Origin: Deltaproteobacteria bacterium
GTDB taxonomy: Bacteria; JAMCPX01
NCBI GenBank assembly: GCA_023381995.1
Contig: JAMCVD010000036.1
Location: 450 to 63,639, forward strand
DNA: 63,190 nt
Direction: 5' to 3'
Shown here: one piece after another, positions 43,554 through 62,403 of the stretch
Position numbering within the stretch: position 1 is the stretch's first letter
How the letters are laid out: every line of letters begins with the position of its first letter
Position numbers and translations under genes: made by a program
Notes under the pieces: generated by a model
The model's database searches: none
Seen by the model: the letters and a program-made list of their open reading frames with translations, nothing else
What the model was told of the DNA's origin: nothing

Positions 43554-44372
43554 TTATCTCACAAGGTACTCTGAATGAACAGTTTTAAAGAGGTATGGGA
43601 TAAAAAAGAATGCAACTATTGATAAGAAAAATAGGACAATGGTCAATAGTGCAGATCTTCTCCCAACCCAGTTTCTGTTAAGTCTGAGATGCAGGAATAG
43701 TCCGTATGCAAGCCATACTACGAGTGACCATGTCTCTACGGGATCAAATCCCCAGTACCTGCCCCATGCATTGTTTGCCCATATAGAGCCTGCTATTATC
43801 ATTATAACACAGAAAGCAAAGCCCAGTGCATTAAACCTGTAGATAGCGATATCGAGCTTATCTAAAGACTGGTGAGGCAACAACTGTTTATGTTTATCAT
43901 TGTCTTTATAGAGATAAAGCACAGCGCTTCCAAATGCTATGAGAAATGAGCCAACAGTAAGCTTTGCAAACAGCACATGAAGGACAAGCCAGTAGCTTCT
44001 TAGTGAGGGCGGAAGCGGTATATCCCTTGCAGATGCCATTAAGCCGAAACCGAGGGCAAGGAAGATTACGGGGATCACAACAAATGACGCCTGTTTTAAA
44101 AAAGTCAGCCTTTTTTGTACAAGAAGATAAAACAACATCGCCACCCATGTATTGGAGCTTATAACCTCGTACATGTTAATATAAGGACCGTGTCCAACCC
44201 TTATCCATCTTATGAGTATCGAGGCACCGTGAGGCACAAGGCCGATAGCACATAATAAAAGTGCGATATGAGTAAGCCTTTCTTTTTTGAACACGAATCC
44301 GATGATAGCAAAGATACTGCCAAACCCGTACAGACTTACGGCAATCCAGTAAAGGATGATTTCTTCTTTCAT
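43554..44372 (-). CDS. ccsA: System II cytochrome c biogenesis protein CcsA (ResC)
   Basis: WWD-type haem-handling motif WANNAWGRYWGFDPVETWSLV. Multi-TM. ATGA overlap with resB. Confidence 0.9.
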   Translation of the reverse strand: MKEEIILYWIAVSLYGFGSIFAIIGFVFKKERLTHIALLLCAIGLVPHGASILIRWIRVGHGPYINMYEVISSNTWVAMLFYLLVQKRLTFLKQASFVVIPVIFLALGFGLMASARDIPLPPSLRSYWLVLHVLFAKLTVGSFLIAFGSAVLYLYKDNDKHKQLLPHQSLDKLDIAIYRFNALGFAFCVIMIIAGSIWANNAWGRYWGFDPVETWSLVVWLAYGLFLHLRLNRNWVGRRSALLTIVLFFLSIVAFFFIPYLFKTVHSEYLVR

Positions 44373-45724
44373 GATTCACACTCCTCTTCAATCTCTTCCA
44401 TCTCTTCCATCTCCTGTTTGTAGGTATTCTCTGTGGTAAGTCTACTATAGGACTTTGCACCAATAAAGAGCCTTTTATCTTCATAAGCAAGCCAGAGCCT
44501 TTTTGGTATAATAAATACAAAACTAAGGATAGAAAGCGCGAGCAAAACGAACCCGGTAAATACAACAGGTACACCGTAATCTCTTGAAACATAAAAGCCT
44601 GTCCATTTTACCATGTTATGAAAGACCAATTCAAAGTCCCCAAGCGAAATCACATCTCCGTTTTTAATATTGTTGTAATGAAGGGTTTTATCGCTTTCCA
44701 AGATCTCAATAGATAACCTATCAGGGTTAGATACATCCACGCTCAATATACTCAGATAACCAAGTATGGGAATATTAAACTGCTGGGTAAGTACACCCAT
44801 AGTGTTCTTTTTATAGGGAAAGTTCACATACCCTGTTGTTTCATAACCTGTAGCTTTATCCACAAGACCGAAATAGGCGGAGTAGCCATAATAGTTTGTT
44901 TGATAAAAGCTAAATCCTTCTAACCTGAGTGGTTTGTTCATCTCAACGTCCTTAGAAAATAAAGGTGTTCCGTTTTTATAAACCTCTACAATGCTCTTAT
45001 AAAGCCTTGGATGGTCTTTGTCCCAGTATGTTACATGAAAGCTTTTCAATCTAATCTGAAAATCAAGTTGAGGCTTTACATGCAGAAAGCCGTACGAGCT
45101 GCCTAAGAAATTCGGCTCTCCTATGGGGAACAATTGTCCCTCCGACAGCTCAATATGTCCTTTAAAGAATGTAAGCCCTGTTATAAGCACCCCTGTCAGG
45201 ATAATCAACATAGATAGATGAAGAAGGGGAATGCCTAAAAGCCCCATAGTATGCTTTGATGCTACAAAACCATCAGCATAAGCCTTTATCCTGTAACCCT
45301 TGCGCTTCAATGTATGCGTAATCTTTTCTTTGAACTCATCTCCGTTGTTATTTACCGGAATAGTCTCATGGATTTTAAGTCCAGCTATCTCCTGTGATGA
45401 CATGGGACGATAATCGCCAAGCTGTTTGATCACGATCTTTATCCGCTCGTAAGAGTTTAAGGCTATGTTAAAAGAGAAAATCAGCACAATGCTGAGAAAC
45501 CACCATGTTGTGTAAACATGATCAATCCCGAGAAAAGATATAAGCTTTGTGAGATATGGGTATGATGCATGAAGGTAAAAATACCCGCCGCTTTCTTCCC
45601 AGTTCCATTGAGGAATCAATGTCGAGAGAACAAGAAAAGCAGCTATTAAGATGATAAAGACCGCAGCAAGCCTTCGCGACCTCAAAATGGTTAACAGCTT
45701 TTTTATTTTATTGTCTATCAACAC
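44369..45724 (-). CDS. resB: System II cytochrome c biogenesis protein ResB/CcsB
   Basis: ResB-type N-terminus (LRSRRLAAVFIILIAAFLVLSTLIPQ), a large periplasmic loop and C-terminal TMs. Immediately upstream of ccsA. Confidence 0.85.
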   Translation of the reverse strand: MLIDNKIKKLLTILRSRRLAAVFIILIAAFLVLSTLIPQWNWEESGGYFYLHASYPYLTKLISFLGIDHVYTTWWFLSIVLIFSFNIALNSYERIKIVIKQLGDYRPMSSQEIAGLKIHETIPVNNNGDEFKEKITHTLKRKGYRIKAYADGFVASKHTMGLLGIPLLHLSMLIILTGVLITGLTFFKGHIELSEGQLFPIGEPNFLGSSYGFLHVKPQLDFQIRLKSFHVTYWDKDHPRLYKSIVEVYKNGTPLFSKDVEMNKPLRLEGFSFYQTNYYGYSAYFGLVDKATGYETTGYVNFPYKKNTMGVLTQQFNIPILGYLSILSVDVSNPDRLSIEILESDKTLHYNNIKNGDVISLGDFELVFHNMVKWTGFYVSRDYGVPVVFTGFVLLALSILSFVFIIPKRLWLAYEDKRLFIGAKSYSRLTTENTYKQEMEEMEEIEEECES

Positions 45725-48520
45725 TTAACCGCAGCTATCAACTGCGCCCGTACTATGACAGTACCACTCGCGCCAGTTGCCGCTGGTTGCCCAGTTAATC
45801 CCGGAGTGGAGTCCATAGTTGGGTATGCTCATGTACGGCGATGGATCACAGTCATCAAATCTCAGCAGTCTGTACCGCTTCCACCCATGGGGTATGGCAA
45901 CATGACATGCCTGACATGGCCTTATATTATGTCTGTTGGTGTGAAGGTTTTGTATGCCCTGAACAAATCCTGTATTTGCAAAATTAGGGTCATGACAGTT
46001 AAAGCACCATATCCTTCCGGAATCCGTGCTGTACTTAACCGTATTGTTCCATGCATTATAAGGACTACCCACAGGCACTTTAAGAATGAATGGATTTATA
46101 GAGCCGTGCGGTCCTTCCGGCGTTGAGCTTGATGCATTGTCTATACCGTGACAGCTACTGCATCTGAGCTTTGCTGTTCTGATCTGTGCGTTTGTCAGTC
46201 CTGAAAGCGTTGGCTCCATCACACCAATGTATGTCGCGTTAAAATTGCCGTAGGTTGTGCTTGCCCGCGGCGTAACATTGCCGATATTTGGTCCGTATGA
46301 ATTACATCCCGCGCCTGATGCAGGTAATACGGATGCTGTCTGGTCGGCTTCTACATAATGATACGACCAGTTATTCACATTGAGTTCCTGCGCCATGTTC
46401 GTCTGCTGCCATGATGCAGAGGGCGTGGGATTGGGTGCGTTTGCTGCAAGCCCATAAGCCCAGTTGGAATGACACTTAAGGCACAGTTTGTAATCAAGGT
46501 TTATGTTTGTTGCCCCGCCGGATTGAGCCAGTGTAACGGATGCGTTGGGTGCATAAACGTAATTGGAAGATACGAGGTCAACGAAATCCTGCTGCGGGTT
46601 TGTTACTGTTACGCCGCTTGCTCCATACAGAGGGATGGAAGCCGTCGCTGTGTGCGCGTTATGACAGTCCGCACATGCCACATGTCTGTTTGCACCACTC
46701 AACGTTCCATCGTTGAATAACAGCCCTTCTCCATAAGGCTTATGCAGATAGCTTGTCGTGGTTATCGGATGCAGGTATGGCTTGTTAAAAGCACTGTCTA
46801 TGGATGTTGATACCGCACTCATCGCAGCTACATTGTAGTAATCCTTGTTGGGCGCATTCGGATTGTTCGCACCGTGGCACTGGAAACAAAATCTCTCTTC
46901 AAGCGGCGACGGCGGCAGACCTGATTGAAGGTATGGAAGCAGCCATAAGCCAAGCGGGGCAAGTATGGATGAAAGTGTTGAATCGTGTAAGCCAAACACA
47001 TAAGGGTAGGTTGTTATCTGGGCACTCTGTGCACTCTTTGGATAGAGTGTATCATTGTGACACTTGGTGCAGTTTGCATTAAATGTATTGTTATAATTAC
47101 AGCCTGTCTCTGTAGAAGAGGTGAAAAGCGATGATACTTGATAGTTGTGTGCGGATGCATTGTATGCCGAGACCTGATTTGCGGGTATATCTGCCACAGG
47201 GATGTAGGGCGTGGTTGTCGTGCTGTCGGGTTGTGAATAGCTCTTTGTCTGGAGTGTCAAATGGCAGGAAAGACAGATACCAGGTGTTGATGTGCTGTTC
47301 ACGAAATCCGTGTTTGTAAATGTATTGGCTGATGTGGGTGTAGGCGATAAGGAGATGGCTGTCCTTAGGTTATAAGCCCTGCCGCCGGTTGATACGTTTA
47401 CATCGGGGCTGAATACATCGTGATCCGCATGACACATAAGGCATCTGCGATTCGTATCTGATGTTCCTTCGAGTGTGGCCGGTATGGAAAGCAGCGGATA
47501 CACTGCCTGTGTGTTGTTCATGTAATGATGGAAGTCCGTTGTCGTATTCATGGGATTGAATATGGACGAATGACACTGGATGCAGTCCTGCGCGCCATGG
47601 CTTTCCGTAAACTCAAACCCGTTGCCGTGCGGATGACATGCCATACAGTTCTGTCCATTGTGATGCGTCTGACCACTGCATGCGAGTGTAAATGTTGTGC
47701 CCGATGTGTATCTGTGATGATTCGTCTGAGTATGACATGTTTCGCATATATTTGATGTGTAGTAGTTTATACCGCCTGATGTTGTAAATGTTGTCCCATC
47801 TGCAAACGAATGTGTTCCGGTGTTGTTGTAAAAGTATATATTGTTCCATCCTGCCGTGTACATCCTTGATCTGATAAGCCTGCCGTAAAAGATGCTGTAG
47901 CTCGCACCGACACTTGTGGATGCACTCAGCCCTGATGTGCCCTGCACTATCTGTACTGTAAGCGTGTTTGTATTATTATCTGTTATCATAAAGACAGCAG
48001 GCTGGTTTGTATCGGGATAGATAGTGTTTGTTATTGTAGCGGTGTTCGGGACAAGGATACTGTCCTTCCATTGACCCACTACCCAGTTTGCCGATGCGTC
48101 AGTAAGTGTTGTTGCCGTTACACCCGAAACAGTGCCTGTAAAGATATAAGCCTGCGTACCAAAAGCGCGCCACTGCTCTTGCTGATGTGGATCATGACAG
48201 TTTGTGCATTGTCTTGACCATGTCCCATACTTTGTTGTGGTTGTCGTTGAAGAATGACCTTGAACAAAATCTGCTATGGTGCCGTTGTGACAGCTCTGGC
48301 ACAGGTTGTCTATGGTGACTGCTGTATTTGTCAGAAGAAAGCCTGCTGTACCCGCATTATGGGCAACATGACAGCCTGTAATGTTGCCCTGAGGGTTTGA
48401 TAGGCATGATATGCCATAAGACATATTATGGGGCGGGTCTGTCGCATAAACAACAGACGGCAACAATAGTATGAAAAGCATGATAATAAAGTGTATGCCA
48501 AATTGTTTTAATTCCTTCAT
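45725..48520 (-). CDS. Large secreted multihaem c-type cytochrome with 14 CXXCH motifs plus one possible CX10CH site. Thr/Asn/Ser-rich.
   Basis: Signal peptide IIMLFILLLPSVVYA. Motifs, in order: CQSCH, CTNCH, CETCH, CMACH, CIQCH, CLMCH, CLSCH, CTKCH, CFQCH, CADCH, CLKCH, CSSCH, CFNCH, CQACH. Confidence 0.9.
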   Translation of the reverse strand: MKELKQFGIHFIIMLFILLLPSVVYATDPPHNMSYGISCLSNPQGNITGCHVAHNAGTAGFLLTNTAVTIDNLCQSCHNGTIADFVQGHSSTTTTTKYGTWSRQCTNCHDPHQQEQWRAFGTQAYIFTGTVSGVTATTLTDASANWVVGQWKDSILVPNTATITNTIYPDTNQPAVFMITDNNTNTLTVQIVQGTSGLSASTSVGASYSIFYGRLIRSRMYTAGWNNIYFYNNTGTHSFADGTTFTTSGGINYYTSNICETCHTQTNHHRYTSGTTFTLACSGQTHHNGQNCMACHPHGNGFEFTESHGAQDCIQCHSSIFNPMNTTTDFHHYMNNTQAVYPLLSIPATLEGTSDTNRRCLMCHADHDVFSPDVNVSTGGRAYNLRTAISLSPTPTSANTFTNTDFVNSTSTPGICLSCHLTLQTKSYSQPDSTTTTPYIPVADIPANQVSAYNASAHNYQVSSLFTSSTETGCNYNNTFNANCTKCHNDTLYPKSAQSAQITTYPYVFGLHDSTLSSILAPLGLWLLPYLQSGLPPSPLEERFCFQCHGANNPNAPNKDYYNVAAMSAVSTSIDSAFNKPYLHPITTTSYLHKPYGEGLLFNDGTLSGANRHVACADCHNAHTATASIPLYGASGVTVTNPQQDFVDLVSSNYVYAPNASVTLAQSGGATNINLDYKLCLKCHSNWAYGLAANAPNPTPSASWQQTNMAQELNVNNWSYHYVEADQTASVLPASGAGCNSYGPNIGNVTPRASTTYGNFNATYIGVMEPTLSGLTNAQIRTAKLRCSSCHGIDNASSSTPEGPHGSINPFILKVPVGSPYNAWNNTVKYSTDSGRIWCFNCHDPNFANTGFVQGIQNLHTNRHNIRPCQACHVAIPHGWKRYRLLRFDDCDPSPYMSIPNYGLHSGINWATSGNWREWYCHSTGAVDSCG

Positions 48521-49980
48521 GGATTTAAAGCCTCTTTTTGCATCATATACCGTATCTGCTCATCGTCTTTCATCATGCCCCTTAGCTTGGCGCCTATGTA
48601 TGAATTCTTCATGAGTATCGTCATAAGTCTGACCATAAATCTTCTTTTGTCCATGGACAGGGATTTCAACTGCCTCATCTTGTGCATATAAAATTCCTTT
48701 GTCGTCTGTACAAGAGCATCCTCGAGCTCGCTGAGCTCCATTGCATCAGGCTTAACAACAGGCTCAACGAGGTTATACCTTCTGTAGTCTTTTACGGTTA
48801 TGTGCTCTTTGAGCTGAGGGTATATGTCACTGTAGGGCCAGGGTGCTATTGCGAGGAAAAAAGCCATGTCCGGGTTATAATAAACCGCCGTATCAAGTGC
48901 ATGGCTTATCGTGTCATGGGTTTCGTAGGGCATGCCAAGCACAAAGCTTGTCTCGGATATAATCCCTGCTTTGTTTATAATATCTATTGCCCTCTTGCTC
49001 TGTTCAGCCTTTATATCTTTTTTGAACAATTCAAGTGATGTATTGCTACCTGATTCTACGCCGACATATATATGGGATACCCCTGCCTTTACATAAAGGT
49101 CCATTATATCTTCGTCTCTGACAATGTCATCTACCCTTGTTTCAAGAAGGAGCTTGATCTTCAAGCCTTTCTGGATAATTAGATTTAGTATATCAACCCA
49201 TCGCTGCCTGTTTGCCGTAGGGTATTCATCGGCAAGCATGACGACTTTTACGCCATAGCGTTCTGAAAGCATCTCAAGCTCATTTACAAATGATAGGGCT
49301 GATCTCTGTCTCCATCTTTTTTCCCAGAAAAGCTGCTGTGAGCAGAAACTGCATTGATGAATGCATCCTCTGGAAGAGCTTACTATGCCAAGCGTAGCAT
49401 TATCGTCGGGGAAATAGCGATAGTCTTCCCAGTTCACCAGATCCCATGCAGGCGTTAATGCATCAAGCGACATGGAAAGCTCGCGGTTGGGCGTTACCCG
49501 TATGACATTATTTTCTTTAAACGCAATACCCTTTACATGCCCCATATTTCCGCATGCATTTATGGCGTCAAGGAGCTCCACAAAAGTAACCTCTCCCTCT
49601 CCGCGAACAACATAATCAATAGAGCTATGGTCGTTAAGCAGCTCGTTGAACATGAATGTCGGGTGCACATTGCCAATCACCGTAATGATATGCTCATCTA
49701 TCATCTTAGCATGGCTTAAAACCTCAACCGCATCAGGCAAGGATGCTGTTATTGCAGTTGTAGCAACCACATCAGGCCTGTCGGTTATTATTTTTCTGAT
49801 TATATCTTCATGGGTATGAAACAGGCTCATTGCATCGTAAATCTCAACATCATAGCCTGCCTGCCTTAATGAGCCTGCTATATATACAAGCCCGAGCGGC
49901 AGCCATACACCTGCTGATTCCACAACACCGGAGTGATATGGCGGTGTAACAAGCATAACCTTTTTTACGCGCTTACGCAT
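48517..49980 (-). CDS. B12-binding-domain radical SAM protein (class B)
   Basis: N-terminal cobalamin-binding-like Rossmann segment (MLVTPPY...LGLVYIAGSLRQAGYDVEIYD) and the cluster motif CIHQCSFC. 4-nt and 8-nt overlaps with its neighbours. Confidence 0.85.
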   Translation of the reverse strand: MRKRVKKVMLVTPPYHSGVVESAGVWLPLGLVYIAGSLRQAGYDVEIYDAMSLFHTHEDIIRKIITDRPDVVATTAITASLPDAVEVLSHAKMIDEHIITVIGNVHPTFMFNELLNDHSSIDYVVRGEGEVTFVELLDAINACGNMGHVKGIAFKENNVIRVTPNRELSMSLDALTPAWDLVNWEDYRYFPDDNATLGIVSSSRGCIHQCSFCSQQLFWEKRWRQRSALSFVNELEMLSERYGVKVVMLADEYPTANRQRWVDILNLIIQKGLKIKLLLETRVDDIVRDEDIMDLYVKAGVSHIYVGVESGSNTSLELFKKDIKAEQSKRAIDIINKAGIISETSFVLGMPYETHDTISHALDTAVYYNPDMAFFLAIAPWPYSDIYPQLKEHITVKDYRRYNLVEPVVKPDAMELSELEDALVQTTKEFYMHKMRQLKSLSMDKRRFMVRLMTILMKNSYIGAKLRGMMKDDEQIRYMMQKEALNP

Positions 49981-51343
49981 GCCTTCTCCTTATCAACAGC
50001 ATAAACAATCCGAGTATAATCAACACGGTATATCCATCCATTATTGATGCACTGCCCGACATTTTATCCGATGTATTGCACGAACACCCTGCACTTTTTG
50101 AGGTTGCAACGGCATTGCTTGTGACTGTTGTCAGCGGTTTTCCTATTATTGAGGGTGAACCTGTTGGCGTTGGCGGCAGTGGCTTTTTGTCAATGTTGAA
50201 TACCTCAACGCGGCTATTAAAAGGATCGGCAACATAGAGAAGCCCGTTGATCCTATCAATGGCAAGGCTTGTTGGATTTTTGAATGCACCAGGCTCGGTT
50301 CCATAAGAGCCTATTGCACCAACAAACTGGTTTTGATTTGTATATACAAACACTGCATTCTGATATGCATCTGCTACATAATACCTGCCAAAATCATCTC
50401 CCGCAACACCAACAGGTCTTGTAAGGCTTGAGTTATTGTCAAACCCAGGATTAAAACCCGACCATCCAATATTGCCCTGTAATCCATACTGACCTACCTG
50501 TGTGGTTGTAGTACCGGCAGTGTTTATCAGAACGATGCTTGCCTTTAAAGGGTCCGCGACAGCAAGGTTATTTAGTAAACTATCAAAATCCATACCAACA
50601 GGCATACCCATCTGGGGATAAGTAAAATTAGATATGCTGTTACAACCCGCATCTATACTATGAATCCCATTGGCATCTGATACATAAATAATGTAAGAAG
50701 CTCTATCTACCGTGATGCCTGATGGGTTATTAAAGCGATTATTATTACATAGATTATTTAAAAAATTTCCATCTATTGAAAAATAAGATGCTATGTCTCC
50801 TTCAGATTTTAAAACAACATACAGCACATTATGCATGACTGTTATTGAACCTGGTTTATTACTAAGGGTAATACCAAAACGTTTATGACCATTGTGATCA
50901 AAAGAGGTTACTGAGTATACCTGTGGTTGAGACACATAAAGATTTCCATTCTCATCAACTGCAACATAAACAGGGCTTTGTAAACCTGTTATCATACCTT
51001 TATAGAATGCAGGCTCTACATTTACAGAAACAAAGGTAAAAGATTGACCCCCAAGCGTTGAATTTACAATAACACTTATTGTGTAGCTACCCCCAACAAG
51101 CGGTGATAGCCATCGTGCATGATTCCCGCTCCATGTAATAAAGCTTCCTGTTGTTGCACTATAAGTAAAAACAAGCCCTCCATTGTCCGTTGAACTCGCA
51201 TTAACTGTCAGAAGGGTTGATCTACCGGGAAATATAGCTGAAGGATCTGCATAAATGCCATTAATTATAGGTGCAGACGCATGTGTCTCTATTATACCTG
51301 CAAATAAAACAGCTATGCATGTTATAAAAATCTTTTTTAACAT
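49973..51343 (-). CDS. Secreted Ig-like plus NHL-repeat beta-propeller protein with a C-terminal Cys-containing TM/Arg-rich sorting-signal-like tail
   Basis: Signal peptide. Repeated NHL strands (P.G...D..G..YVAD..N.V). The C-terminus is ..SAGCSCNTSD...YTVLIILGLFMLLIRRRHA. Confidence 0.8.
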   Translation of the reverse strand: MLKKIFITCIAVLFAGIIETHASAPIINGIYADPSAIFPGRSTLLTVNASSTDNGGLVFTYSATTGSFITWSGNHARWLSPLVGGSYTISVIVNSTLGGQSFTFVSVNVEPAFYKGMITGLQSPVYVAVDENGNLYVSQPQVYSVTSFDHNGHKRFGITLSNKPGSITVMHNVLYVVLKSEGDIASYFSIDGNFLNNLCNNNRFNNPSGITVDRASYIIYVSDANGIHSIDAGCNSISNFTYPQMGMPVGMDFDSLLNNLAVADPLKASIVLINTAGTTTTQVGQYGLQGNIGWSGFNPGFDNNSSLTRPVGVAGDDFGRYYVADAYQNAVFVYTNQNQFVGAIGSYGTEPGAFKNPTSLAIDRINGLLYVADPFNSRVEVFNIDKKPLPPTPTGSPSIIGKPLTTVTSNAVATSKSAGCSCNTSDKMSGSASIMDGYTVLIILGLFMLLIRRRHA

Positions 51344-51368: not shown

Positions 51369-51384
51369 AGCAAATTTCGTGCCA
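51369..51384 (-). promoter_or_regulatory. Consensus sigma-54 (-24/-12) promoter TGGCACGAAATTTGCT
   Basis: GG and GC are at the canonical spacing. It lies 25 nt upstream of the ATG of the NHL/sorting-signal gene, and an AAAGGAGG SD follows. Confidence 0.75.
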
Positions 51385-52766: not shown

Positions 52767-53506
52767 ATCTTATGACAGGCTATACAAACCTGCGTAGTAT
52801 TGGATTTTCTTAAAAAATGCACGCCAGAGGCGGAAAAATTATCATCCTGATGCGGATTGTGGCACGATGTACACTGCACCTCATTATTGCGGTCAAGCCT
52901 TACCCCATTAGGATCATCTTCCATCTCCGTCATACTTGCAAGGTTTGAACCTGTAACATAGCTCTGCGTAATCATCTTTTGTGTTACAACAAAGGATATG
53001 GGATGACTGCCGGAAAGGTTTGTTCCGAGATACCCCTTTGATGTTGACGGCATGGTTGTTATGTTGTTCTGCATGGGGATTGATGAACTCCTGCTCCTGA
53101 CCTGTCCAATGGCTATGGTACCGTCATGGCAGCTCAGACACAGCTTTGATGCCCCATCAGGTGTCACAGGTTTACCGCCCGGTGACAGTGATTCGAGGCT
53201 ATTGGACCAGTACATATTGTAATTTGTGCCTGTATTCAGCTTCTTGTTCCACAGAGGCGTGTTCGGCTCAGCATCATGCGGGGTATGACAGAATATACAC
53301 ACCTGTTTCTCTGTTGTGGACTTTATCCTGCCGGGACCGGATACGGACAGATTATGCAGTGTATTCAGAACACTTCCGGCATACGCAAGACTGCAGCTCA
53401 GTAATAATAACATTACCGGTAAAAAAATTACAGCCGCTCGCTTTACAAACAGTGAAACATGGCTGTCTCTTTGTTTATTGATGTAGTGCTTCATTCTTTG
53501 TATCAC
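52763..53506 (-). CDS. Tetrahaem c-type cytochrome (doubled-CXXCH type, 247 aa), paralogue of 59321..60064
   Basis: HNLS...CIFCHTPH, CLSCHDG, CTSCHNPH, CIACH. Confidence 0.9.
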   Translation of the reverse strand: MIQRMKHYINKQRDSHVSLFVKRAAVIFLPVMLLLLSCSLAYAGSVLNTLHNLSVSGPGRIKSTTEKQVCIFCHTPHDAEPNTPLWNKKLNTGTNYNMYWSNSLESLSPGGKPVTPDGASKLCLSCHDGTIAIGQVRSRSSSIPMQNNITTMPSTSKGYLGTNLSGSHPISFVVTQKMITQSYVTGSNLASMTEMEDDPNGVRLDRNNEVQCTSCHNPHQDDNFSASGVHFLRKSNTTQVCIACHKM

Positions 53507-54540: not shown

Positions 54541-55422
54541 TCATTGTTCTTTCACCTCCGGTATTGGTTGTATAGGTATACGCATCTTAAACTCGGGCAG
54601 CGGCGATTCAAAGGTATTCTGTTTGACGGTATTGGGCTTCCTGTCGGGCTGTGTGCTTGACTCGGTTACTTCAACACTCTTAACGTTATTGCGTAATTGA
54701 GAGGAAGAATATATACCAATGCCCAGCATAATATGCATCTCACCCTTTCCTGTATAAGACATGCCGCCACCAATGCCTGCCGATAAAACGGCCGAGCTAT
54801 CGGCAAAATAGTATCTTGCACCTGCAGTACCTTCAACCCTGTTTTTAAAACCGGTGCTGTTGACGATCCAGTTGTCTGTATCAAAAAGTATATTCAATTG
54901 CTCTCCTACCCTGTAAATTATACCGCCACTTAAGATGACCGCTCTTAGTACCGATAAGTAGCCTGTACTGAAAATGAGATCAAATTTATTCAAATGCCTC
55001 TCAATAATCTCCCGTATATCTATTGACGGATGCCCTGAAAGGTTGTCACCAACCACACAAGTGGCGATCTCCGGTCTTTGCAGGTACCGCCATTTTACCC
55101 CTGCGATCATGCCTATACTGTTTTTCTCATAAAGCAGTTGATAGTCGTTATAATGTACAGCACCGATCATAAGCTCCAGGTCATTCAGTGCACCGAATGA
55201 TACGGTAACAGGCGAAACATTAAAGTTATCTGTTCTCTCCTGTTTATAGTATCCTGCCCATACGCTGTAAAGGGATACGCCGCTATTCAATGTGGACGCA
55301 TCCGGTACATCAAATATACCTGATAATCCGTTCTTGTACGGCGCTGCATGGAGTGCCCCGGCAATAACGAGTATCAGCAGCATTGATATACATAATTTCA
55401 AAGCAATATTCCTCAGCATCAC
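54541..55422 (-). CDS. Exported protein, possibly YjbH/outer-membrane-like. The C-terminus is Pro/Gln-rich.
   Basis: Signal peptide LLILVIAGALHA. GLSGIFDVPDASTL resembles the YjbH-family N-terminus. Beta-rich composition. Confidence 0.45.
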   Translation of the reverse strand: MMLRNIALKLCISMLLILVIAGALHAAPYKNGLSGIFDVPDASTLNSGVSLYSVWAGYYKQERTDNFNVSPVTVSFGALNDLELMIGAVHYNDYQLLYEKNSIGMIAGVKWRYLQRPEIATCVVGDNLSGHPSIDIREIIERHLNKFDLIFSTGYLSVLRAVILSGGIIYRVGEQLNILFDTDNWIVNSTGFKNRVEGTAGARYYFADSSAVLSAGIGGGMSYTGKGEMHIMLGIGIYSSSQLRNNVKSVEVTESSTQPDRKPNTVKQNTFESPLPEFKMRIPIQPIPEVKEQ

Positions 55423-57608
55423 GGCAATTCCTCATGCAGTCTCTTCAAAAATGTATGCAAGCTCCACAGATCTGGATCATTTAAAGCACCGGTATATAGT
55501 GTCTTATTCATCTTTATTGCCATGGCTATGTTTCTTTGTGCCTCGGGTTGATTGCCCAACCTTGCATAAGCACATGCAAGGTTGTAGTATACATACGGAT
55601 CGAGCTGCTTTACTGCCTTTAATAGAGATAACGCCTTATCATATTTTTTCAACCGTATGTAGAGCGATGCAAGGTTTACAGCCGTATCTTTTTGATCAGG
55701 ATTTAGCTCCAACGCATGCTTATACGCGTGCAGTGACTGATCGTATAAACCAAGATGCTCGCTTGCCTCTCCCTGCAATTCAAACAATGTATAATCGTAT
55801 GGATCAAGCTTCTGTGCCTTTTTAACGGTATTCAGTGCCGCGGTGTAGCTGCCCTCTCTTATAAGTACCACTGCCCGGTCGCTCATGATACTCGCCTGAA
55901 CAACGGGAGAAAAAAAAGCAAGCCTGTATGCCATATTAAATTGTTTCATTGCATTGCTGTAATCACCTTTGTCCGAATAAAGTATGCCAAGCCATCGCCG
56001 CGCCTGAAGATAGTAAGGAGATAGGTCTACAGTATCTTTCAGATCCTCGAAAGCCCCTGCTGCGTTTCCACGATTGATTCTAATCATTGCCCTGTCAAAA
56101 AAATAGTTTTCATTAAAAGGCGCCTGAGTAATGGCATAAGAAAGTTTATCTTCAATTTCATTCTCAAACTTATTCGGCATTGCATGCTCCTGTTTAAACA
56201 GGGTATCGGCAAAAATATATGATCTTTGGGCAATGGCTATATGAAAAGCGGCAATGAATACCAAGAAGCTTAAGACCACAAGCACATAGTTGATAACCTT
56301 CCATACATAAGGCTTTATATTAAAATTGTTATCAGCGTATAAACTGGCGATGCCGGAATACATCCAGAATAAAAAGCCCGTTGCAGGCATTCTAAGAGGG
56401 AATGAGAATAAGCCGATAATAAGCAGACTGACAAATCCGAGGAACCCGCCGATGAGGGCAGGCATGTCTTTTCCTTCAGCCTTTGATATGCCGCATGTAA
56501 ATACATATAGTATATAAATAAGTAAACCCGTAAATATCAGGATGCCGGGAATGCCTGTTTCCGATAGTATGTTGAGGTATTCGTTGTGTGCATAGTTCAT
56601 GGTAACGTGGTTCGAAAACGTCATCATGGATAACGCCCTATCAGCATAGAGAGGGAATACGGCATCAAATGCGCCAAACCCGATGCCTGAGACCGGATGC
56701 GATGGTACAAGCGATACGAGTATTGATTTCCATGTAAGCAATCTGACGATGTTATCGGAATAATGTATATTGAATATAGATGTGAAATAACCGATCAAGC
56801 TGTTTGTCTGACTGGATATCAAGGACAGCAAAAAAGCTCCTGCAGCCACTATGCCTGCAGCGTAGAGAGGAGACAGATTTATCGTGACTTGTCTTTTTCT
56901 TCTTATATAAACAAGGAGAGCGATGCTTACAAGACTTACAACAATCAAAGCAACCCATGAAGCCCTTGAATGTGAGATTATAACATAAAGTATACCTCCC
57001 ATTATCGCAATACTGAGGACAATGCTGTTCCACAGTTTTTTCCTGAAAATGAACTGGCCAATAAGCAAAGGCAAGACACTGACGATGTACTCTGCACCGA
57101 AATTGGACAGCCCAAAGGTAGATACTGGATTTATCCTGCCATACTGATCAGCGGGTATATAGCCGAACAAACCGGTAATCTGAACAATGCCTATTGATAC
57201 ACTTATTATAACCGCAATGGCAGCAGCAAGTGTAAGCAGGCCCACATCGTCCTCATCCGGTGCCAGTATAATCAAAGCAGGATAGATAAAAAATGGACCA
57301 AGTACTTTTATGATTTCAACAAACCCCTTTATAGGTACTTCTGAGAATATTATAGAAATAACAATCCATACACCCATTATGCCTGTAAACAGCATTACGC
57401 CGGGTATTTTTGCAGGCATTTTATGCCGATGGATCACAGAAGCAAGACCAAAGAATATAAAAGCAGAGAAAGCAGAAAATGTGATCTTGATCCACTCATA
57501 CTCCCATCCCCATTTAATAAGAGGCATTATGAAGCACCAAAAAACCATGATTGATAACAGAGAATTTAAATACCTATTCACCAATATAGCCTCCAAAGTT
57601 CCTCCCAA
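55419..57608 (-). CDS. O-antigen ligase-like (Wzy_C) polytopic membrane protein fused to C-terminal TPR repeats
   Basis: About 11 TM segments with a large loop typical of the Wzy_C/PglL/WaaL family. The C-terminal 250 aa consists of TPR units. Confidence 0.7.
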   Translation of the reverse strand: MGGTLEAILVNRYLNSLLSIMVFWCFIMPLIKWGWEYEWIKITFSAFSAFIFFGLASVIHRHKMPAKIPGVMLFTGIMGVWIVISIIFSEVPIKGFVEIIKVLGPFFIYPALIILAPDEDDVGLLTLAAAIAVIISVSIGIVQITGLFGYIPADQYGRINPVSTFGLSNFGAEYIVSVLPLLIGQFIFRKKLWNSIVLSIAIMGGILYVIISHSRASWVALIVVSLVSIALLVYIRRKRQVTINLSPLYAAGIVAAGAFLLSLISSQTNSLIGYFTSIFNIHYSDNIVRLLTWKSILVSLVPSHPVSGIGFGAFDAVFPLYADRALSMMTFSNHVTMNYAHNEYLNILSETGIPGILIFTGLLIYILYVFTCGISKAEGKDMPALIGGFLGFVSLLIIGLFSFPLRMPATGFLFWMYSGIASLYADNNFNIKPYVWKVINYVLVVLSFLVFIAAFHIAIAQRSYIFADTLFKQEHAMPNKFENEIEDKLSYAITQAPFNENYFFDRAMIRINRGNAAGAFEDLKDTVDLSPYYLQARRWLGILYSDKGDYSNAMKQFNMAYRLAFFSPVVQASIMSDRAVVLIREGSYTAALNTVKKAQKLDPYDYTLFELQGEASEHLGLYDQSLHAYKHALELNPDQKDTAVNLASLYIRLKKYDKALSLLKAVKQLDPYVYYNLACAYARLGNQPEAQRNIAMAIKMNKTLYTGALNDPDLWSLHTFLKRLHEELP

Positions 57609-59265
57609 GCTGGATAATCAATCCATGAACAACGCTGTCAGCGCCCGGTATGTGCTGGTTAATCAAGTATCCTCTTATATTGAGAAACAGCAGACGGTAG
57701 TAATGTGTTACATAAACCTCATACCTTGTATACTCTGATGATGGGTAATATGACGCGCTATTGAATCCGCGTTGTAAAACTATACTTGCAGCGGTATTAT
57801 GGATGGATGTTACGGCAAGCGTTGTTGAAATGTATTGGTTTCTGTACCATGCCTGAGGCGTGGAATTGCTGAGAAGCCCTCCTGTGAGCGAGAATAAACC
57901 AATGTGTGTTACAGGCAGGGAGAATATAAGATTCAGCATACGATTGTATAAAGGGTACTGGTTATAGAAACCGTTTTGAAATACCCTTTCGTATGTAAAA
58001 TTGGATTGAAGATAGGCAGGCTTGAAATAAGCGCTATAGAGCTGTGCAAGATAGCGGAAGTCATCAAGATTATTACCTGAGCCCTGCGTGTATCTTGTGA
58101 TCATATAGTTCACGTCATTGTAGACATTAAAGAATTTAAAATCCTTCGTGCCTATACCGCCGTCAAGATAATTGGCATGCGACAGCCCCTGACCTGCAGG
58201 CGGATTTTGTAGCATTGCAACTGCGATGTTATACCCTGCGTTTACATAGTAGTGGTCCCATGGCTTTAAATAGGTAATGCCTCCCTGTAAAAATTCTGTA
58301 TCCATTGAGCTGGTGCCTGCATCACCGGAGCTTTTTGAATCTATCACATAAATACCGTTTAAAAGACTTACGGTGTTTGTTGCACGATAATAAAGGTTAT
58401 AGCCTGCCTGCGTACCCTGAGCACTGCCACTGCTGTAGGCAGTTGTGTTATAGTCGGCAAAATAGTTTGTAGTCATTCTCCAGTCAGGGGTACTCACAAG
58501 GTTTGTATATATATTCAGTTGATCTGTCGAAACCGTTGTCTGCGACGGATATGTATACGCAAAATTATAGGTGCTTAACCCTGTATAGAGGTGTAATGTC
58601 TTGTTAAAGGTTTTATTGTCATTAACAGCAAAACCATTTGTAGTGTAATTGTTGTTTGTGATAAGATCATTCTGCGTAGTATACTGGTATTGACCTGTTA
58701 ATACGTTATCCCTGTCTGCCTTTGAAAACGATACAACAGAGGTTGTTCTGTCCTGCTTGAATGGGTAGGGAACGCCGGATGTCGAGTCGCGTGTTTTATC
58801 AAGAATAATGTTGAATCTTGGAAGAGAGTTTATGGCAATGGCCCAGTTCAAGCCATAAGAAAATGTATGCATCTTGAGTAAGTAGCCTGTACCTGTGTCC
58901 TGCTCGTTATATATGTCTCTTATATAGGACAGCAGCGGGGAGCTATCAGGCAAAAGGGTGAGGTTTAATGCATAGCCCGTCGTATACCTTCTTAATCCGC
59001 CTCCACCGGTCATGTAATCTATATCATCAATGTTGAGGCCTGACGAAAATACGGCGAGTCTTGGATCGTATATGTAGGTTGCGAAGTTAAGTCCAAGTGC
59101 ACCGGCGAATCCTCTTGTATAGATGGAGGTGTTATTATAATCGGCAAGGTAGTCCTCGTATCTTAAACTTGTCTGTCCTCCTATATAATACCTGTGGGCA
59201 TATACATTGATTGGTAAAAAGAGCACGCATACGATTATCAGGATATATCTTTGCATTACTTTCAT
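57574..59265 (-). CDS. Predicted large outer-membrane beta-barrel protein (about 563 aa, rich in Tyr/Asn/Thr/Gly)
   Basis: Signal peptide ILIIVCVLFLPINVYA. Long series of alternating-hydrophobicity strands. GAGGTG SD before the ATG at 59265. Confidence 0.5.
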   Translation of the reverse strand: MKVMQRYILIIVCVLFLPINVYAHRYYIGGQTSLRYEDYLADYNNTSIYTRGFAGALGLNFATYIYDPRLAVFSSGLNIDDIDYMTGGGGLRRYTTGYALNLTLLPDSSPLLSYIRDIYNEQDTGTGYLLKMHTFSYGLNWAIAINSLPRFNIILDKTRDSTSGVPYPFKQDRTTSVVSFSKADRDNVLTGQYQYTTQNDLITNNNYTTNGFAVNDNKTFNKTLHLYTGLSTYNFAYTYPSQTTVSTDQLNIYTNLVSTPDWRMTTNYFADYNTTAYSSGSAQGTQAGYNLYYRATNTVSLLNGIYVIDSKSSGDAGTSSMDTEFLQGGITYLKPWDHYYVNAGYNIAVAMLQNPPAGQGLSHANYLDGGIGTKDFKFFNVYNDVNYMITRYTQGSGNNLDDFRYLAQLYSAYFKPAYLQSNFTYERVFQNGFYNQYPLYNRMLNLIFSLPVTHIGLFSLTGGLLSNSTPQAWYRNQYISTTLAVTSIHNTAASIVLQRGFNSASYYPSSEYTRYEVYVTHYYRLLFLNIRGYLINQHIPGADSVVHGLIIQLGRNFGGYIGE

Positions 59266-59281: not shown

Positions 59282-59306
59282 AAAAAAAGGGGGGCTTTCG
59301 CCCCCT
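59282..59306 (-). terminator. Strong intrinsic terminator (GGGGGC-GAAA-GCCCCC followed by T7) downstream of the tetrahaem gene
   Basis: Minus strand reads agagggggcgaaagcccccctttttttgag. It sits between the stop at 59321 and the next start at 59265. Confidence 0.8.
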
Positions 59307-59320: not shown

Positions 59321-60064
59321 TTATTTTATGTGACAATCAAGACAGAGCTGACTGCTTGTTATCGCATCCCTTAATAACAAAGGATTTACCGAGCCGTGAA
59401 CAGCATGGCAGCTTCCGCATTCAATACCCTTACCTATCCCACCATTGGGATCACCGAACAGCAACACCTTTGTAGGACTTGCCTGGAACTGAGAAATATT
59501 TACGCCGCCACCAGTGCTGATACCGTTGTACGGCGAGTATCCGGGATACGGGATACCAATGGGATGATTGCCGTTCATATTGCCACCGACCCCGACCTCA
59601 TATGTTGTATTCGTCAACTGGTATGACGCGTTCACATCACCTTGCATGGGTATGGAGTAATTTGAATTAACAACGCCTGTTGACTCGTTAAACACCTCGT
59701 TGACCTGGCCTATTGCAACCGAGCCGTCATGACACGCAATACATTTGAATGACGGCAGGTTTGCCGGGTTTGTGGGCAGTACTGTTCCACCTGATGTTCC
59801 TGTTGCGCTGCCGGTGCCCCATATCCATGTTGTATTTATTGATGCTGCATGGTTCCATATAAACCTCTGATCAAGAGCATGGTGAGGGGTATGACAGAAC
59901 ACGCATACCTGGCTCGTACCACCTGATGTTGTTGCCTGTGATCGTGTGTAATTCGTTGAGCTTGCCGATAGATTATGCTTGGTTGTAGTAATAGCCGCGT
60001 TAGCTATTACAGTTAGCCCCACCAGTAAGGCTAACATTGATACTGCAAAACTTATCTTTTTCAT
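59321..60064 (-). CDS. Tetrahaem c-type cytochrome (doubled-CXXCH type, 247 aa)
   Basis: Signal peptide. HNLS...CVFCHTPH, CIACHDG, CGSCHAVH, CLDCH. Has its own SD, a promoter-like element and a terminator. Confidence 0.9.
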   Translation of the reverse strand: MKKISFAVSMLALLVGLTVIANAAITTTKHNLSASSTNYTRSQATTSGGTSQVCVFCHTPHHALDQRFIWNHAASINTTWIWGTGSATGTSGGTVLPTNPANLPSFKCIACHDGSVAIGQVNEVFNESTGVVNSNYSIPMQGDVNASYQLTNTTYEVGVGGNMNGNHPIGIPYPGYSPYNGISTGGGVNISQFQASPTKVLLFGDPNGGIGKGIECGSCHAVHGSVNPLLLRDAITSSQLCLDCHIK

Positions 60065-60112: not shown

Positions 60113-60116
60113 GTTT

Positions 60117-60197
60117 GTTTCACCCTTTTGATCATTATTCACAGATTAAAAGCGCGTTTTCACCCCTAGCCCATACGGGAATTGGGTGTTTTCACCC
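60117..60197. repeat. Three direct copies of GTTT(T)CACCC (minus strand GGGTGAAA(A)C) upstream of the sigma-54-like element
   Basis: Copies at 60117..60125, 60156..60165 and 60188..60197. The last copy is embedded in a nested stem-loop at 60174..60205. Confidence 0.6.
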
Positions 60198-60213
60198 ACC
60201 CGTATACTGAAAA

Positions 60214-61248
60214 TCAATGTTTATTTGCCCGTTTTTCCGTATTGATTAATTGATATACATTAACCCTGTAGCTATAGCTATCTGCGACATAAATACGATT
60301 ATTTTTATCTATCGCAATAGCAGTTGGTATGATCAACTGTCCTGGTCCAATACCAGGTCCACCAAAATACATCAAAGGCTTCCATTCCTTTGTAAACATC
60401 TGTACCGCATGAAAATCAGAATCTGCAATATAGATATTTCCGTATGTATCAAATGCTATGCCCTTTATCCTGTCAAATGTGCCGGGGGCATCGCCCTCTA
60501 CCCCAAACTTGCCAAGAAACTTTCCATCAGGGCTAAACCATTGAACCCTGAAATTCATTGTATCGCTTACATAGAGATCCCCATTACTATTAACAGCAAG
60601 GTATGTAGGGAAATTGAACTCTCCATCTCCAGTGCCTCTTTTACCAATGGTTTTTATATATCTTCCCTTCATGGTGAATACCTTTATGTCATGCCCCTTT
60701 GCCTCATTAAATGCCGTATCCGCCACATAGAGTAGCTCCTTTGTTCTATCCATTGCAAGACCCGTAGGCCTAAGAAACATGTTAGCGCCAATATCTTTGA
60801 TGAACTTACCATGTTTATCAAACACCCTTACAAGCTTCAAGGAAGAATCAGCAACATAGACATTTTCGTCCTTATCCAGTGCTACACCAAATGGATTTAC
60901 AAGATGGTATCTTTGGTCCGTGCCAATGTATCTTACTTTCTTTTCTTTAAAATCAAACACGAACACAGCACCAAGCTGATAATCCGTCACATAAACACGC
61001 TGTGCGTCATCACTGATGGCAATTCCCATGGGCTGAACAAGCGAGGGTTCTTGTTTAGGACCGAGTAAAAAGTTAAGAAACCTTTGCCATGCGCTTTGAG
61101 GAAAATCATATCGCCCATGAAGTGCTTCAATATATTCTATATGCGGTTTATTGGGAGGCAGGGGCCATACGATCTTGTCCGGCTTTATCCCGGCAGCAGC
61201 ACAACCTGTAAATATAATAAATAAAAGCAATAAAATTCTTTTCATCAC
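60214..61248 (-). CDS. NHL-repeat beta-propeller lipoprotein
   Basis: Lipobox IIFTGC. Six NHL-type blades. Paralogue of 53475..54527. Confidence 0.85.
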   Translation of the reverse strand: MMKRILLLLFIIFTGCAAAGIKPDKIVWPLPPNKPHIEYIEALHGRYDFPQSAWQRFLNFLLGPKQEPSLVQPMGIAISDDAQRVYVTDYQLGAVFVFDFKEKKVRYIGTDQRYHLVNPFGVALDKDENVYVADSSLKLVRVFDKHGKFIKDIGANMFLRPTGLAMDRTKELLYVADTAFNEAKGHDIKVFTMKGRYIKTIGKRGTGDGEFNFPTYLAVNSNGDLYVSDTMNFRVQWFSPDGKFLGKFGVEGDAPGTFDRIKGIAFDTYGNIYIADSDFHAVQMFTKEWKPLMYFGGPGIGPGQLIIPTAIAIDKNNRIYVADSYSYRVNVYQLINTEKRANKH

Positions 61249-61254
61249 ACCCCC

Positions 61255-62328
61255 TTACCAGTTTGATTCTTTGCCATGACATCTTTTACACATATCTAGC
61301 TTTGTTTCACCGGCATACCACATATAAGGGTGATTAGATGAATGCGGATTATGACAGCTTATGCAGGTAAGTGGCTTGCCTTTCAGCTCCTTCATATCAT
61401 ATACACCTGACACAGGATGAGGCTTGTTCTGCGGGGTCGTAAAGACATGATACCCATCAGCCTGTTTTTTATGGCATGTTGCGCATAGCTCATTTACAGG
61501 CTTCTTCAACATGAAATCATTGTTCGTGCCGTGCGGATCATGGCATGCTGTACAGCCGTATTTTTCTATGGCAGGATGCACAACCTTGTCCTTGTCTTTT
61601 GGCTCATGACACATATAGCAGAGTTCCTTGCCTCTTGCGGCGAGCATATAAGGATTATCGGAAGCATGAGGGCTATGGCAGTTTGTGCATTCACCGCCTG
61701 CAACAGCAGGGTGTATTACCCTTCTTCCCGTTAGATCGTCTGCATGGCAGATAAAGCATGTATTGCTTACAGGAGAGGGCTTTCTTAAAAGATGGTCATG
61801 CTCTGATTCATGGGCATGATGGCATGTAAGGCACTTCCCAAGTTTTACAGCAGCATGTACATAAGTTTTTTTTATCATATCCTTATGACACGACAAACAT
61901 AGCCCCGCCATGTTATTGATAGGTTGAACAAGGTAGATGTCCCTGTTGTCTTGTCTCTGGATAAAAACCGGTCCCATTATCATACCTTTTGTTCTCAATA
62001 AATAGTTGTTATTTTCAGAATGTGGATTATGACACATCACACATCGGCCCTGTGCAACGGGTGGATGCACATCCTTTTTTGTGTTTTTTTTATCGTGACA
62101 CGTATAGCACAGCGCTGGAACACGGGCAGAGAGTGTGAATTTATGATTACCTTTTGCCGGCACATGACAGTCCTTACATCCCATGCTGTCAAGCGCCGGA
62201 TGTTTAAAAGAGCCTGATAAAATGCCTGTATGACACTTTGAAGTTGTGCAACCTTCACTTGTGTCAGCAAGACTTACTGCAGGTACTAATATTATTATTC
62301 CTACTATTAAGGACAATTGTTTTATCAT
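61255..62328 (-). CDS. Multihaem c-type cytochrome (12 CXXCH plus an N-terminal CX4CH), c3/c7-like repeats
   Basis: Signal peptide. CTTSKCH, CKDCH, CYTCH, CVMCH, CLSCH, CLTCH, CFICH, CTNCH, CYMCH, CTACH, CATCH, CISCH, CKRCH. Confidence 0.9.
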   Translation of the reverse strand: MIKQLSLIVGIIILVPAVSLADTSEGCTTSKCHTGILSGSFKHPALDSMGCKDCHVPAKGNHKFTLSARVPALCYTCHDKKNTKKDVHPPVAQGRCVMCHNPHSENNNYLLRTKGMIMGPVFIQRQDNRDIYLVQPINNMAGLCLSCHKDMIKKTYVHAAVKLGKCLTCHHAHESEHDHLLRKPSPVSNTCFICHADDLTGRRVIHPAVAGGECTNCHSPHASDNPYMLAARGKELCYMCHEPKDKDKVVHPAIEKYGCTACHDPHGTNNDFMLKKPVNELCATCHKKQADGYHVFTTPQNKPHPVSGVYDMKELKGKPLTCISCHNPHSSNHPYMWYAGETKLDMCKRCHGKESNW

Positions 62329-62387
62329 TAAATCCTTATTCTACATAAACGGTGATATAGATACATCTCCACTTTGTTAGAAAAGTA

Positions 62388-62403
62388 AGCAAACATCATG
62401 CCA
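62388..62403 (-). promoter_or_regulatory. Sigma-54 (-24/-12) promoter TGGCATGATGTTTGCT upstream of the first cytochrome gene
   Basis: Canonical GG/GC spacing. About 60 nt upstream of the ATG at 62328, with an AAGGA SD. Confidence 0.7.

Follow-up and report, generated by a model that had tools for sequence, protein, structure and literature searches.

The locus described here raises the question of whether a dense array of multihaem cytochrome genes represents a new kind of extracellular electron transfer (EET) system or an elaborated form of a known one. It lies at positions 43554-62403 of a 63,190-nucleotide stretch (the window, meaning the whole stretch analysed) of a Deltaproteobacteria bacterium (assembly GCA_023381995.1, contig JAMCVD010000036.1, positions 450 to 63,639). 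A preliminary description, made from the letters alone, had proposed that this island encodes an undescribed EET or cytochrome-filament system, and had not asserted homology to any known one. We consider it likely that the island is a horizontally acquired, expanded OmcE-type EET locus organised as two sigma-54-dependent operons. Its core matches the published omcE cluster, and the island is therefore not a new kind of system.

OmcE homologues and a split cytochrome

The island comprises 14 co-directional open reading frames (ORFs) on the minus strand (43554-62328), all of them intact and without frameshifts, at the positions given earlier. Their junctions are short gaps or overlaps of 4-8 nt, with sizeable gaps of only 247 nt (51344-51590), 149 nt, and 55 nt. 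Five of the products are multihaem cytochromes, each carrying Paired_CXXCH domains in Pfam, with 12, 4, 4, 7, and 14 CXXCH motifs, respectively. The sum of 41 agrees with the earlier count, as do two of the three variant motifs that accompanied it (the 12-haem protein carries a CX4CH at residue 27, and the 7-haem protein a CX3CH at residue 346), while the third variant was not confirmed. The same domain scan placed CcsA, ResB, B12-binding plus Radical_SAM, and Wzy_C plus TPR domains in the island, as well as NHL repeats in three proteins.

The placement of this cluster rests first on its two tetrahaem proteins of 247 aa each, E1 (59321..60064), a stand-alone OmcE-type cytochrome and candidate filament subunit, and E2 (52763..53506). 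Both matched the OmcE filament subunit of Geobacter sulfurreducens (7TFS), E1 at E 4.7e-22 (residues 4-247 on 5-232) and E2 at E 6.3e-30 (residues 27-246 on 7-231). Both also aligned over their full length, E1 at E 6e-15, with 9YUQ, whose label in PDB is merely "Putative multiheme cytochrome c" and which we take to be the OmcE bundle of Desulfuromonas soudanensis. The match of E2 to the hexahaem protein OmcS was marginal (E 0.058). Alignments of the E1 and E2 families show four invariant CXXCH motifs and four invariant distal histidines, including the N-terminal histidine of an H-(N/D)-(L/F)-S motif (21 database relatives); the invariant histidine columns are H51, H74, H77, H127, H168, H216, H219, and H245, and they are likewise invariant when E1 is the reference. 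A haem-free AlphaFold2 (AF2) model of E1 had a mean predicted local distance difference test score (pLDDT) of 53, and its Foldseek matches are meaningless. Judged by these alignments, E1 and E2 are clearly full-length OmcE homologues, which overturns the earlier reluctance to assert homology. The family they belong to is large: at E <= 1e-5 it counts more than 2,176 sequence clusters.

E2 corresponds to one part of a larger conserved protein. We found 69 proteins with eleven CXXCH motifs in which an OmcE-like domain at residues ~1-210 is followed by a 7-haem part of ~350 residues, and E2 scored a median of 155 bits against these N-domains compared with 64 bits against stand-alone OmcE-like proteins. 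Profile scores gave the same ranking for E2 (236 bits on the 11-haem N-domain profile versus 140 on the stand-alone profile) and the reverse for E1 (120 bits on the stand-alone profile versus 96). Next to E2 is a gene (51591..52766) for a cytochrome with seven CXXCH and one CX3CH motif, its own signal peptide, and an MtrC/MtrF-type domain (PF22113, 43.6 bits, cut-off 30), which had no informative match in PDB. Its CX3CH motif, C-x-L-x-C-H-G-x-(D/N)-H, occurs at the C-terminus of 63 of the 69 fused proteins and also in the split ones; because it is conserved, the 11-CXXCH unit is really a 12-haem cytochrome. On this comparison, E2 is the split-off N-terminal domain and the 7+1-haem protein the split-off C-terminal domain of one conserved cytochrome. 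The same split, with a 4-haem gene followed by a 7-haem gene, was seen in loci of Nitrospirota, Acidobacteriota, and Brocadiia, and split forms are present in the distant loci L008, L020, L038, L039, and L041. The split is a true fission rather than a frameshift.

The full block of 14 genes, with its order kept, is present in three other Deltaproteobacteria bacterium metagenome-assembled genomes (GCA_027455085.1, GCA_023382265.1, and GCA_023487665.1) and in several ENA contigs, where it shows 83-86% nucleotide identity, a cluster GC content of 0.36-0.42, and different flanks. At greater distance, a scan of one genome per species with the OmcE-like alignment found a relative in at least 578 species. 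The best 80 loci come from Planctomycetota, Verrucomicrobiota, Nitrospirota, Bacteroidota, Ignavibacteria, Calditrichota, Acidobacteriota, Desulfobacterota, Gammaproteobacteria, Zixibacteria, Myxococcota, and others. Their recurrent gene order is a tetrahaem OmcE-like protein, an NHL protein, a small multihaem protein, a protein of ~650-720 aa, a second NHL protein, and the 11-CXXCH cytochrome of ~570-600 aa. Among the 45 loci whose sequence extends 7.5 kb or more upstream from the 11-haem gene (all gathered for their resemblance to E2), an NHL gene immediately precedes the 11-haem or E2 gene in 42, a barrel-family gene is present in 36, a second NHL gene in 35, a stand-alone OmcE-like gene in 33, and a small multihaem gene in 31, and 23 loci hold all five features. 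NHL and barrel-family genes are thus co-conserved with the cytochromes, so that the lack of co-conservation which the preliminary description had named as telling against its proposal was not found. Some OmcE-like proteins in loci L008-L087, often encoded beside the cluster and transcribed divergently from it, carry five to seven CXXCH motifs (e.g., L010, L022, L067, and L079) and recall the 5-haem OmcE-like proteins of Petersen et al.

The minimal omcE cluster has been described as two multihaem cytochromes, two beta-propeller lipoproteins, OmcE, and a large beta-barrel, with resB/ccsB adjoining and glycosylation and TPR genes commonly following, and its homologues occur in five phyla, Nitrospirota among them (Petersen et al. 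2025, bioRxiv 10.1101/2025.10.22.684050). By this published description, the island shares with the omcE cluster (the GSU0615-0618 region of G. sulfurreducens and that of D. soudanensis WTL) an OmcE-homologous tetrahaem subunit, two propeller lipoproteins, two multihaem cytochromes, a large putative barrel, adjoining resB/ccsA, and TPR and glycan-related genes. The match removes the label "undescribed" from the system, and together with the OmcE homology it supports the type that had been proposed for it. Unlike the omcE cluster, the island has its 12-haem gene first, its barrel-family protein is ~100 aa shorter and very divergent, and its second multihaem cytochrome is split into the OmcE-like and 7+1-haem proteins. 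It also holds genes that the omcE cluster lacks, for a Wzy_C-TPR protein, a 293-aa orphan, a third NHL protein, a BchE-like radical S-adenosylmethionine (SAM) enzyme, and a 14-haem cytochrome. Finally, it sits on low-GC DNA with insertion sequence (IS) remnants, whereas the omcE cluster is found in a conserved purHDE...ffh neighbourhood.

Conduit proteins and the putative barrel

The first gene of the island (61255..62328) encodes a predicted periplasmic cytochrome with 12 CXXCH and one CX4CH motif (Paired_CXXCH_1, 208 bits). It is MtrA/DmsE-like, with a match to the MtrA chain 6R2Q_A at E 1e-16, a score of 124 bits on the DmsE-family model TIGR03508 (cut-off 192), and 34.9 bits on the MtrC/MtrF domain PF22113 (cut-off 30). 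Two NHL beta-propeller lipoproteins accompany the cytochromes. Lipoprotein a (60214..61248; NHL 102 bits) has a lipobox, FTGC, read by eye, and its gene adjoins an OmcE-like gene as in most related loci; lipoprotein b (53475..54527; NHL 82 bits) has the lipobox LSTC, also read by eye. NHL proteins had been described as triplicated here, and there are indeed three, of which two are core lipoproteins as in the omcE cluster and one is an extra.

The 563-aa exported protein (57574..59265) had been labelled an outer-membrane barrel. A plain hidden Markov model (HMM) built from its 43 positional equivalents found no match in it. In the reverse direction, a profile built on the 563-aa protein together with its relatives picks up the positional proteins of ~670 aa, an iterated HMM recovers 43 of the 43, and hhalign joins the two families at a probability of 99% (E 7.6e-18, 282 columns); the 563-aa protein is therefore a short, divergent member of the ~670-aa family. 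A word-index homology search with the 563-aa protein, as a single sequence or as a profile, returned only three to four proteins because low-complexity words swamp the candidate list. The ~670-aa proteins have the look of outer-membrane barrels, with a C-terminal R-x-F consensus and an OmpA-like period-2 amphipathicity (z 2.2-4.8, compared with 4.9 for the OmpA control). Genes for SurA-like peptidyl-prolyl isomerase/chaperones lie directly upstream of the barrel-family gene in one Acidobacteriota and one Nitrospirae locus (L039:6112-7137 and L041:5834-6871).

For the 563-aa protein itself, the evidence of a barrel fold is weak. An AF2 model built from five sequences had a pLDDT of 24.7 and was unusable, the period-2 amphipathicity test was negative (z -0.4), and the C-terminus reads ...RNFGGYIGE and does not end in Phe. 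The protein had no match in Pfam, NCBIfam, or PDB, a profile search of the PDB sequences was also blank, and neither the protein nor its family matched MtrB/PioB-family porins in Pfam, NCBIfam, or PDB profiles. Because modelling failed and the patterning was negative, the earlier label is unconfirmed, and we treat the protein as a putative barrel on the strength of its family.

These genes also invite comparison with porin-cytochrome conduits. With Shewanella MtrCAB (6R2Q) and Geobacter OmaB-OmbB-OmcB, the island shares an MtrA/DmsE-like periplasmic multihaem protein, a large, here putative, outer-membrane protein, and an outer cytochrome with an MtrC/MtrF-type domain. Unlike in Mtr, however, the 563-aa protein has no detectable MtrB/PioB homology and the 12-haem protein falls below the DmsE-family cut-off, and the NHL lipoproteins and OmcE-like proteins of the island are not part of Mtr. 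The osc cluster of Geobacter reportedly uses a porin-like protein and accessory periplasmic proteins to mount the OmcS filament on the outer membrane (Shen et al. 2025); the idea of filament mounting is shared, although OmcS is a hexahaem protein related to E2 by a marginal match. In peat Acidobacteriota and Verrucomicrobiota, the porin-scaffold-cytochrome clusters EET1-4 have been modelled as Mtr-like conduits (bioRxiv 10.64898/2026.05.27.727921). These clusters share with the island syntenic OmcE-like, MtrA-like, and MtrC-like cytochromes and porins in uncultured phyla, but belong to different lineages, and no radical SAM, Wzy_C, or split cytochrome genes are reported in the text consulted. 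Both of those phyla are numerous among the loci related to the island. Desulfovibrio ferrophilus IS5 has clusters of NHL beta-propeller and multihaem proteins (DFE_448-451 and DFE_461-465) proposed to serve electron uptake under donor limitation (PMC5815863). The parallel with the island is one of description, and that work discusses no OmcE-type subunit or barrel.

Two further genes of this part of the island have a narrow distribution. One encodes a polytopic Wzy_C (O-antigen-ligase-like) membrane protein with a C-terminal TPR region (55419..57608; Wzy_C 60 bits, TPR_2 65 bits) and is confined to close relatives among the compared loci; Wzy_C is a family of O-antigen ligases and pilin/protein O-oligosaccharyltransferases. 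The other encodes a 293-aa exported orphan (54541..55422) with only five relatives among 1.84 billion representatives. The orphan had been called YjbH-like, yet it had no match in Pfam or NCBIfam (both at E 0.01), nor in PDB. Four components are peculiar to this lineage, namely the Wzy_C-TPR protein, the orphan, the 14-haem protein, and the NHL protein at 49973-51343. The earlier view that the radical SAM and Wzy_C genes lie outside characterised conduits holds, and along with the 293-aa and 14-haem genes they are also outside the conserved core.

Promoter motifs, terminator, and the proposed second operon

We scanned the window for sigma-54 type -24/-12 promoters (TGGCAC-N5-TTGC, up to one mismatch) and found four boxes, two of which are intergenic, on the coding strand, and before the first gene of a proposed operon. 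P1, TGGCATGATGTTTGC (62389..62403, minus strand, one mismatch), lies 61 nt upstream of the 12-haem gene, and P2, TGGCACGAAATTTGC (51370..51384, minus strand, perfect), lies 27 nt upstream of the gene for a 456-aa NHL protein. The P1 box is kept in place in the relatives L001, L003, and L007, and the only two box matches in relatives sit at the P1 and P2 positions. From these motifs we propose that the island is read as two sigma-54-dependent operons, one from 62328 to 51591 and the other from 51343 to 43554. A scan for sigma-70 promoters gave nothing above chance. A further sigma-54-like box, TGGCAGTATCTTTGC (44308-44322, minus strand, one mismatch), falls inside ccsA and is probably due to chance. 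The Rfam scan matched only a transfer-messenger RNA (tmRNA), so that the island is without a riboswitch.

Directly 3' of the E1 gene is a strong intrinsic-terminator-like element, GGGGGCGAAAGCCCCC followed by T7 (59290..59305, minus strand), which forms a perfect GC hairpin and is kept in relatives. In the distant loci, a hairpin resembling a terminator stands after 10 of 43 stand-alone OmcE-like genes and after 41 of 850 other ORFs. A terminator right after the gene is the usual arrangement for over-produced fibre subunits such as pilins.

The second operon begins with the 456-aa NHL protein (49973..51343), which has a conserved C-terminal Cys motif, a transmembrane helix, and an RRR tail. 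Its identity to the corresponding proteins of relatives is 58%, against 73-92% for the other 13 island proteins, and by these values its gene is the fastest-evolving of the island. The preliminary description had given this protein an Ig-type N-terminus and a sorting-signal-like tail, neither of which found support: the N-terminal region had no family match, and the C-terminal tail matched no known sorting-signal model. Upstream of the gene, the intergenic nucleotides could not be aligned (within 49973-51590, compared with L138 and L003), and some relatives hold an extra ORF of 149-163 aa there.

Next in the operon is a predicted cytoplasmic B12-binding radical SAM enzyme (48517..49980), whose score on the BchE equivalog model TIGR02026 (411 bits) is strong but below the cut-off of 481. 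Judged by this score, the enzyme is BchE-related and not BchE itself. It shares with BchE, the anaerobic Mg-protoporphyrin IX monomethyl ester cyclase, the B12-binding and radical SAM domains and a full-length match; unlike for BchE, no photosynthesis genes are present and the context is ResB-CcsA with multihaem cytochromes. This context recurs elsewhere. A metagenome scan yielded 49 loci with relatives of the enzyme (46-58% identity over full-length matches), and 36 of these were informative, reaching 1 kb or more upstream. In 21 of the 36, CcsA, mostly preceded by ResB, is encoded no more than two genes upstream of the radical SAM gene; a large multihaem cytochrome is often found upstream of the ResB-CcsA-radical SAM genes. 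A radical SAM match was nearby in only one of the 80 distant OmcE-type loci, and the enzyme is therefore tied to System II cytochrome c maturation and not to the OmcE core. Our literature search found no paper linking a B12 radical SAM enzyme to ResB/CcsA. Between the CcsA and radical SAM genes, loci L088-L136 hold one of two types of small conserved ORF (e.g., L115:9649-10017 and L089:3580-4056), encoding either a membrane protein of ~123 aa or an exported protein of ~160-200 aa, both without a Pfam match.

The operon continues with a 931-aa, Ser/Thr/Asn-rich cytochrome with 14 CXXCH motifs by count (45725..48520). Over residues ~570-930 it shares homology with the conserved cytochrome's 7-haem C-domain, of which it thus holds a second copy in the island, and with 7-haem proteins encoded ahead of ResB-CcsA-radical SAM in other loci. 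The protein has no relative in PDB, and its N-terminal half is without an informative relative. The last two genes encode ResB (44369..45724; PF05140, 178 bits) and CcsA (43554..44372; PF01578, 135 bits), adjacent to each other, and bear out the earlier statement that the island brings its own System II maturation genes.

Island borders, competing explanations, and meaning

The island differs in composition from the adjacent core, as the preliminary description had noted from a few lines: its GC content is 0.429 (43554-62403) compared with 0.569 in the core (5000-37232). The low-GC block starts earlier than had been thought, however, at ~37300 directly after pyrG, where GC steps sharply from 0.59 to 0.41 (~37.3 kb). 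Its first part holds genes for a Wza-like polysaccharide export protein of 851 aa (37301-39856, plus strand), an intact IS110 transposase (40438-41661, plus strand), and fragments of IS21 istB and istA (41966-42439 and 42908-43384, minus strand). At the far end lies the remnant of a sigma-54 enhancer-binding protein (62412-62717, minus strand), of which the final 101 aa are left with AAA_lid and HTH_8 domains (a Fis-type helix-turn-helix); in about 20 of the 80 distant loci, full-length activators of ~450 aa flank the cluster. The preliminary description had thus correctly recognised that IS remnants border the island at one end and a truncated regulator at the other. The low-GC block with its omcE-type cluster was probably acquired horizontally.

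Other observations concern the surroundings of the cluster. Within the Wza-like gene, a tandem 248-nt direct repeat with 73% identity (39276-39778) marks an internal domain duplication. Just upstream of the truncated activator gene are two 24-nt direct repeats, GTGCACTTTTCAAGTTTAAAT-like on the minus strand and 33 nt apart (62785-62841), which had been read as a transposon-like terminus and may be a mobile-element end or a binding site. Near the other end of the window, the tmRNA gene (3235-3584, minus strand, tag ANDYALAA) adjoins smpB (3640-4113), and the stretch beside it (1-3237) has a very low GC content of 0.355. This stretch looks like a second island inserted at the 3' end of the tmRNA gene, a classical integration site.

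In the arrangement that we infer for the island, the first operon would supply a conduit and a wire. The periplasmic MtrA-like 12/13-haem cytochrome would carry electrons over the periplasm into the barrel-family outer-membrane protein, which would hand them to an outer 12-haem unit made of E2 and the 7+1-haem MtrC-like protein, with the two NHL beta-propeller lipoproteins as scaffolds holding the complex together. E1 would polymerise as an OmcE-type nanowire subunit, presumably made in excess because a terminator directly follows its gene. The Wzy_C-TPR protein may glycosylate or anchor Ser/Thr-rich surface cytochromes. The second operon would add a surface-anchored NHL protein and a giant 14-haem outer cytochrome, and ResB-CcsA with the BchE-like B12 radical SAM partner could form a dedicated haem-attachment module that meets the heavy haem demand.

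Several points weigh against this arrangement, besides those given above for the putative barrel. E1 is divergent, scoring 40-54 bits against most relatives, and filaments have been seen for only three proteins of the OmcE family, those of G. sulfurreducens, D. soudanensis, and G. metallireducens (bioRxiv 10.1101/2025.10.22.684050), while the physiological importance of OmcE filaments is disputed in Geobacter (PMC13194489). The co-occurrence counts presuppose that an E2/11-haem-like gene is present, as resemblance to E2 was how the loci were gathered. Expression would depend on some other activator, because the adjacent activator gene is truncated. The host organism is known from metagenomes only. 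Alternatively, the island might encode only a trans-outer-membrane porin-cytochrome complex, with no nanowire, in which E1 and E2 are monomeric or complex-bound tetrahaem cytochromes of the surface or the periplasm. The NHL partner (42 of 45 loci) and the barrel-family gene (36 of 45) are more constant than the stand-alone OmcE-like gene (33 of 45), as is the 11/12-haem gene, MtrA-like and MtrC-like parts are present, filaments are proven for only three family members, and similar peat clusters are modelled as Mtr-like conduits. We nevertheless find a conduit without a nanowire somewhat unlikely, as E1 has lost none of the haem ligands of OmcE (the N-terminal His motif is kept too), its gene is followed by a strong conserved terminator in an arrangement typical of over-produced fibre subunits, and homologues in the same gene context polymerise. 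Nor does anything in the sequence set the direction in which electrons flow. In principle, multihaem chains can run either way, and the association of NHL and multihaem clusters with electron uptake under donor limitation in D. ferrophilus (PMC5815863) would fit uptake from Fe(0), reduced minerals, electrodes, or partner cells. The island encodes no inner-membrane quinol/quinone module that would indicate coupling, and we regard this opposite direction as possible but rather doubtful.

Two other explanations concern the DNA itself. The island could be silent or decaying cargo, mobilised without its activator, unexpressed in this host, and heading for loss, as the reduction of the sigma-54 activator gene to its final 101 aa, the flanking IS remnants, and the HTH_28/HTH_29 gene (putatively transposase-like) that relatives hold at the activator position might suggest. 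This seems quite improbable to us given that all 14 ORFs are intact and free of frameshifts, with 73-92% protein identity (58% for the 456-aa NHL protein), that both sigma-54 boxes and the terminator are conserved, and that activators can act from elsewhere in the genome. The GC jump could also stem from an assembly or binning chimera of two organisms, and the sharpness of the step and the breaks of same-run Logan contigs near both edges of the low-GC block are in keeping with one. These breaks can be attributed to the IS elements present there, however, and an independent Logan contig crosses the junction with 0 mismatches, from pyrG to a point 149 nt inside the first low-GC gene, which makes a chimera very unlikely.

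Returning to the OmcE-type locus with conduit and wire, we tentatively add a linked pair of proposals that we think more doubtful than not: that the OmcE-like N-domain of the 12-haem cytochrome (E2 in this island) is the base or nucleator of the nanowire, and that the BchE-like enzyme modifies haem or its precursor. Stand-alone OmcE subunits could then polymerise onto the membrane-proximal 12-haem cytochrome. If true, the former would explain the anchoring and initiation of cytochrome nanowires, and would mean that nanowire subunits arose by fission or duplication of the OmcE-like domain of the 12-haem cytochrome. If the latter is true, haem or a precursor would be altered in the cytoplasm before export, and some giant cytochromes would carry a non-standard haem.

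The island bears on the question of how cells secrete and anchor cytochrome nanowires and how they start and stop them. With the 12-haem cytochrome naturally split, it offers a ready-made dissection of the junction between conduit and wire, and the recurrent pairing of a radical SAM enzyme with System II hints at a possibly unknown step in cytochrome maturation. The island is compact and self-contained: promoters, maturation genes, and accessory genes all come with it, and it has evidently been passed as one block from lineage to lineage, which makes it a candidate for heterologous reconstitution. The breadth of the core cluster, with at least 578 species in one scan, supports the view that electron-transfer hardware of this type is common well beyond Geobacter.

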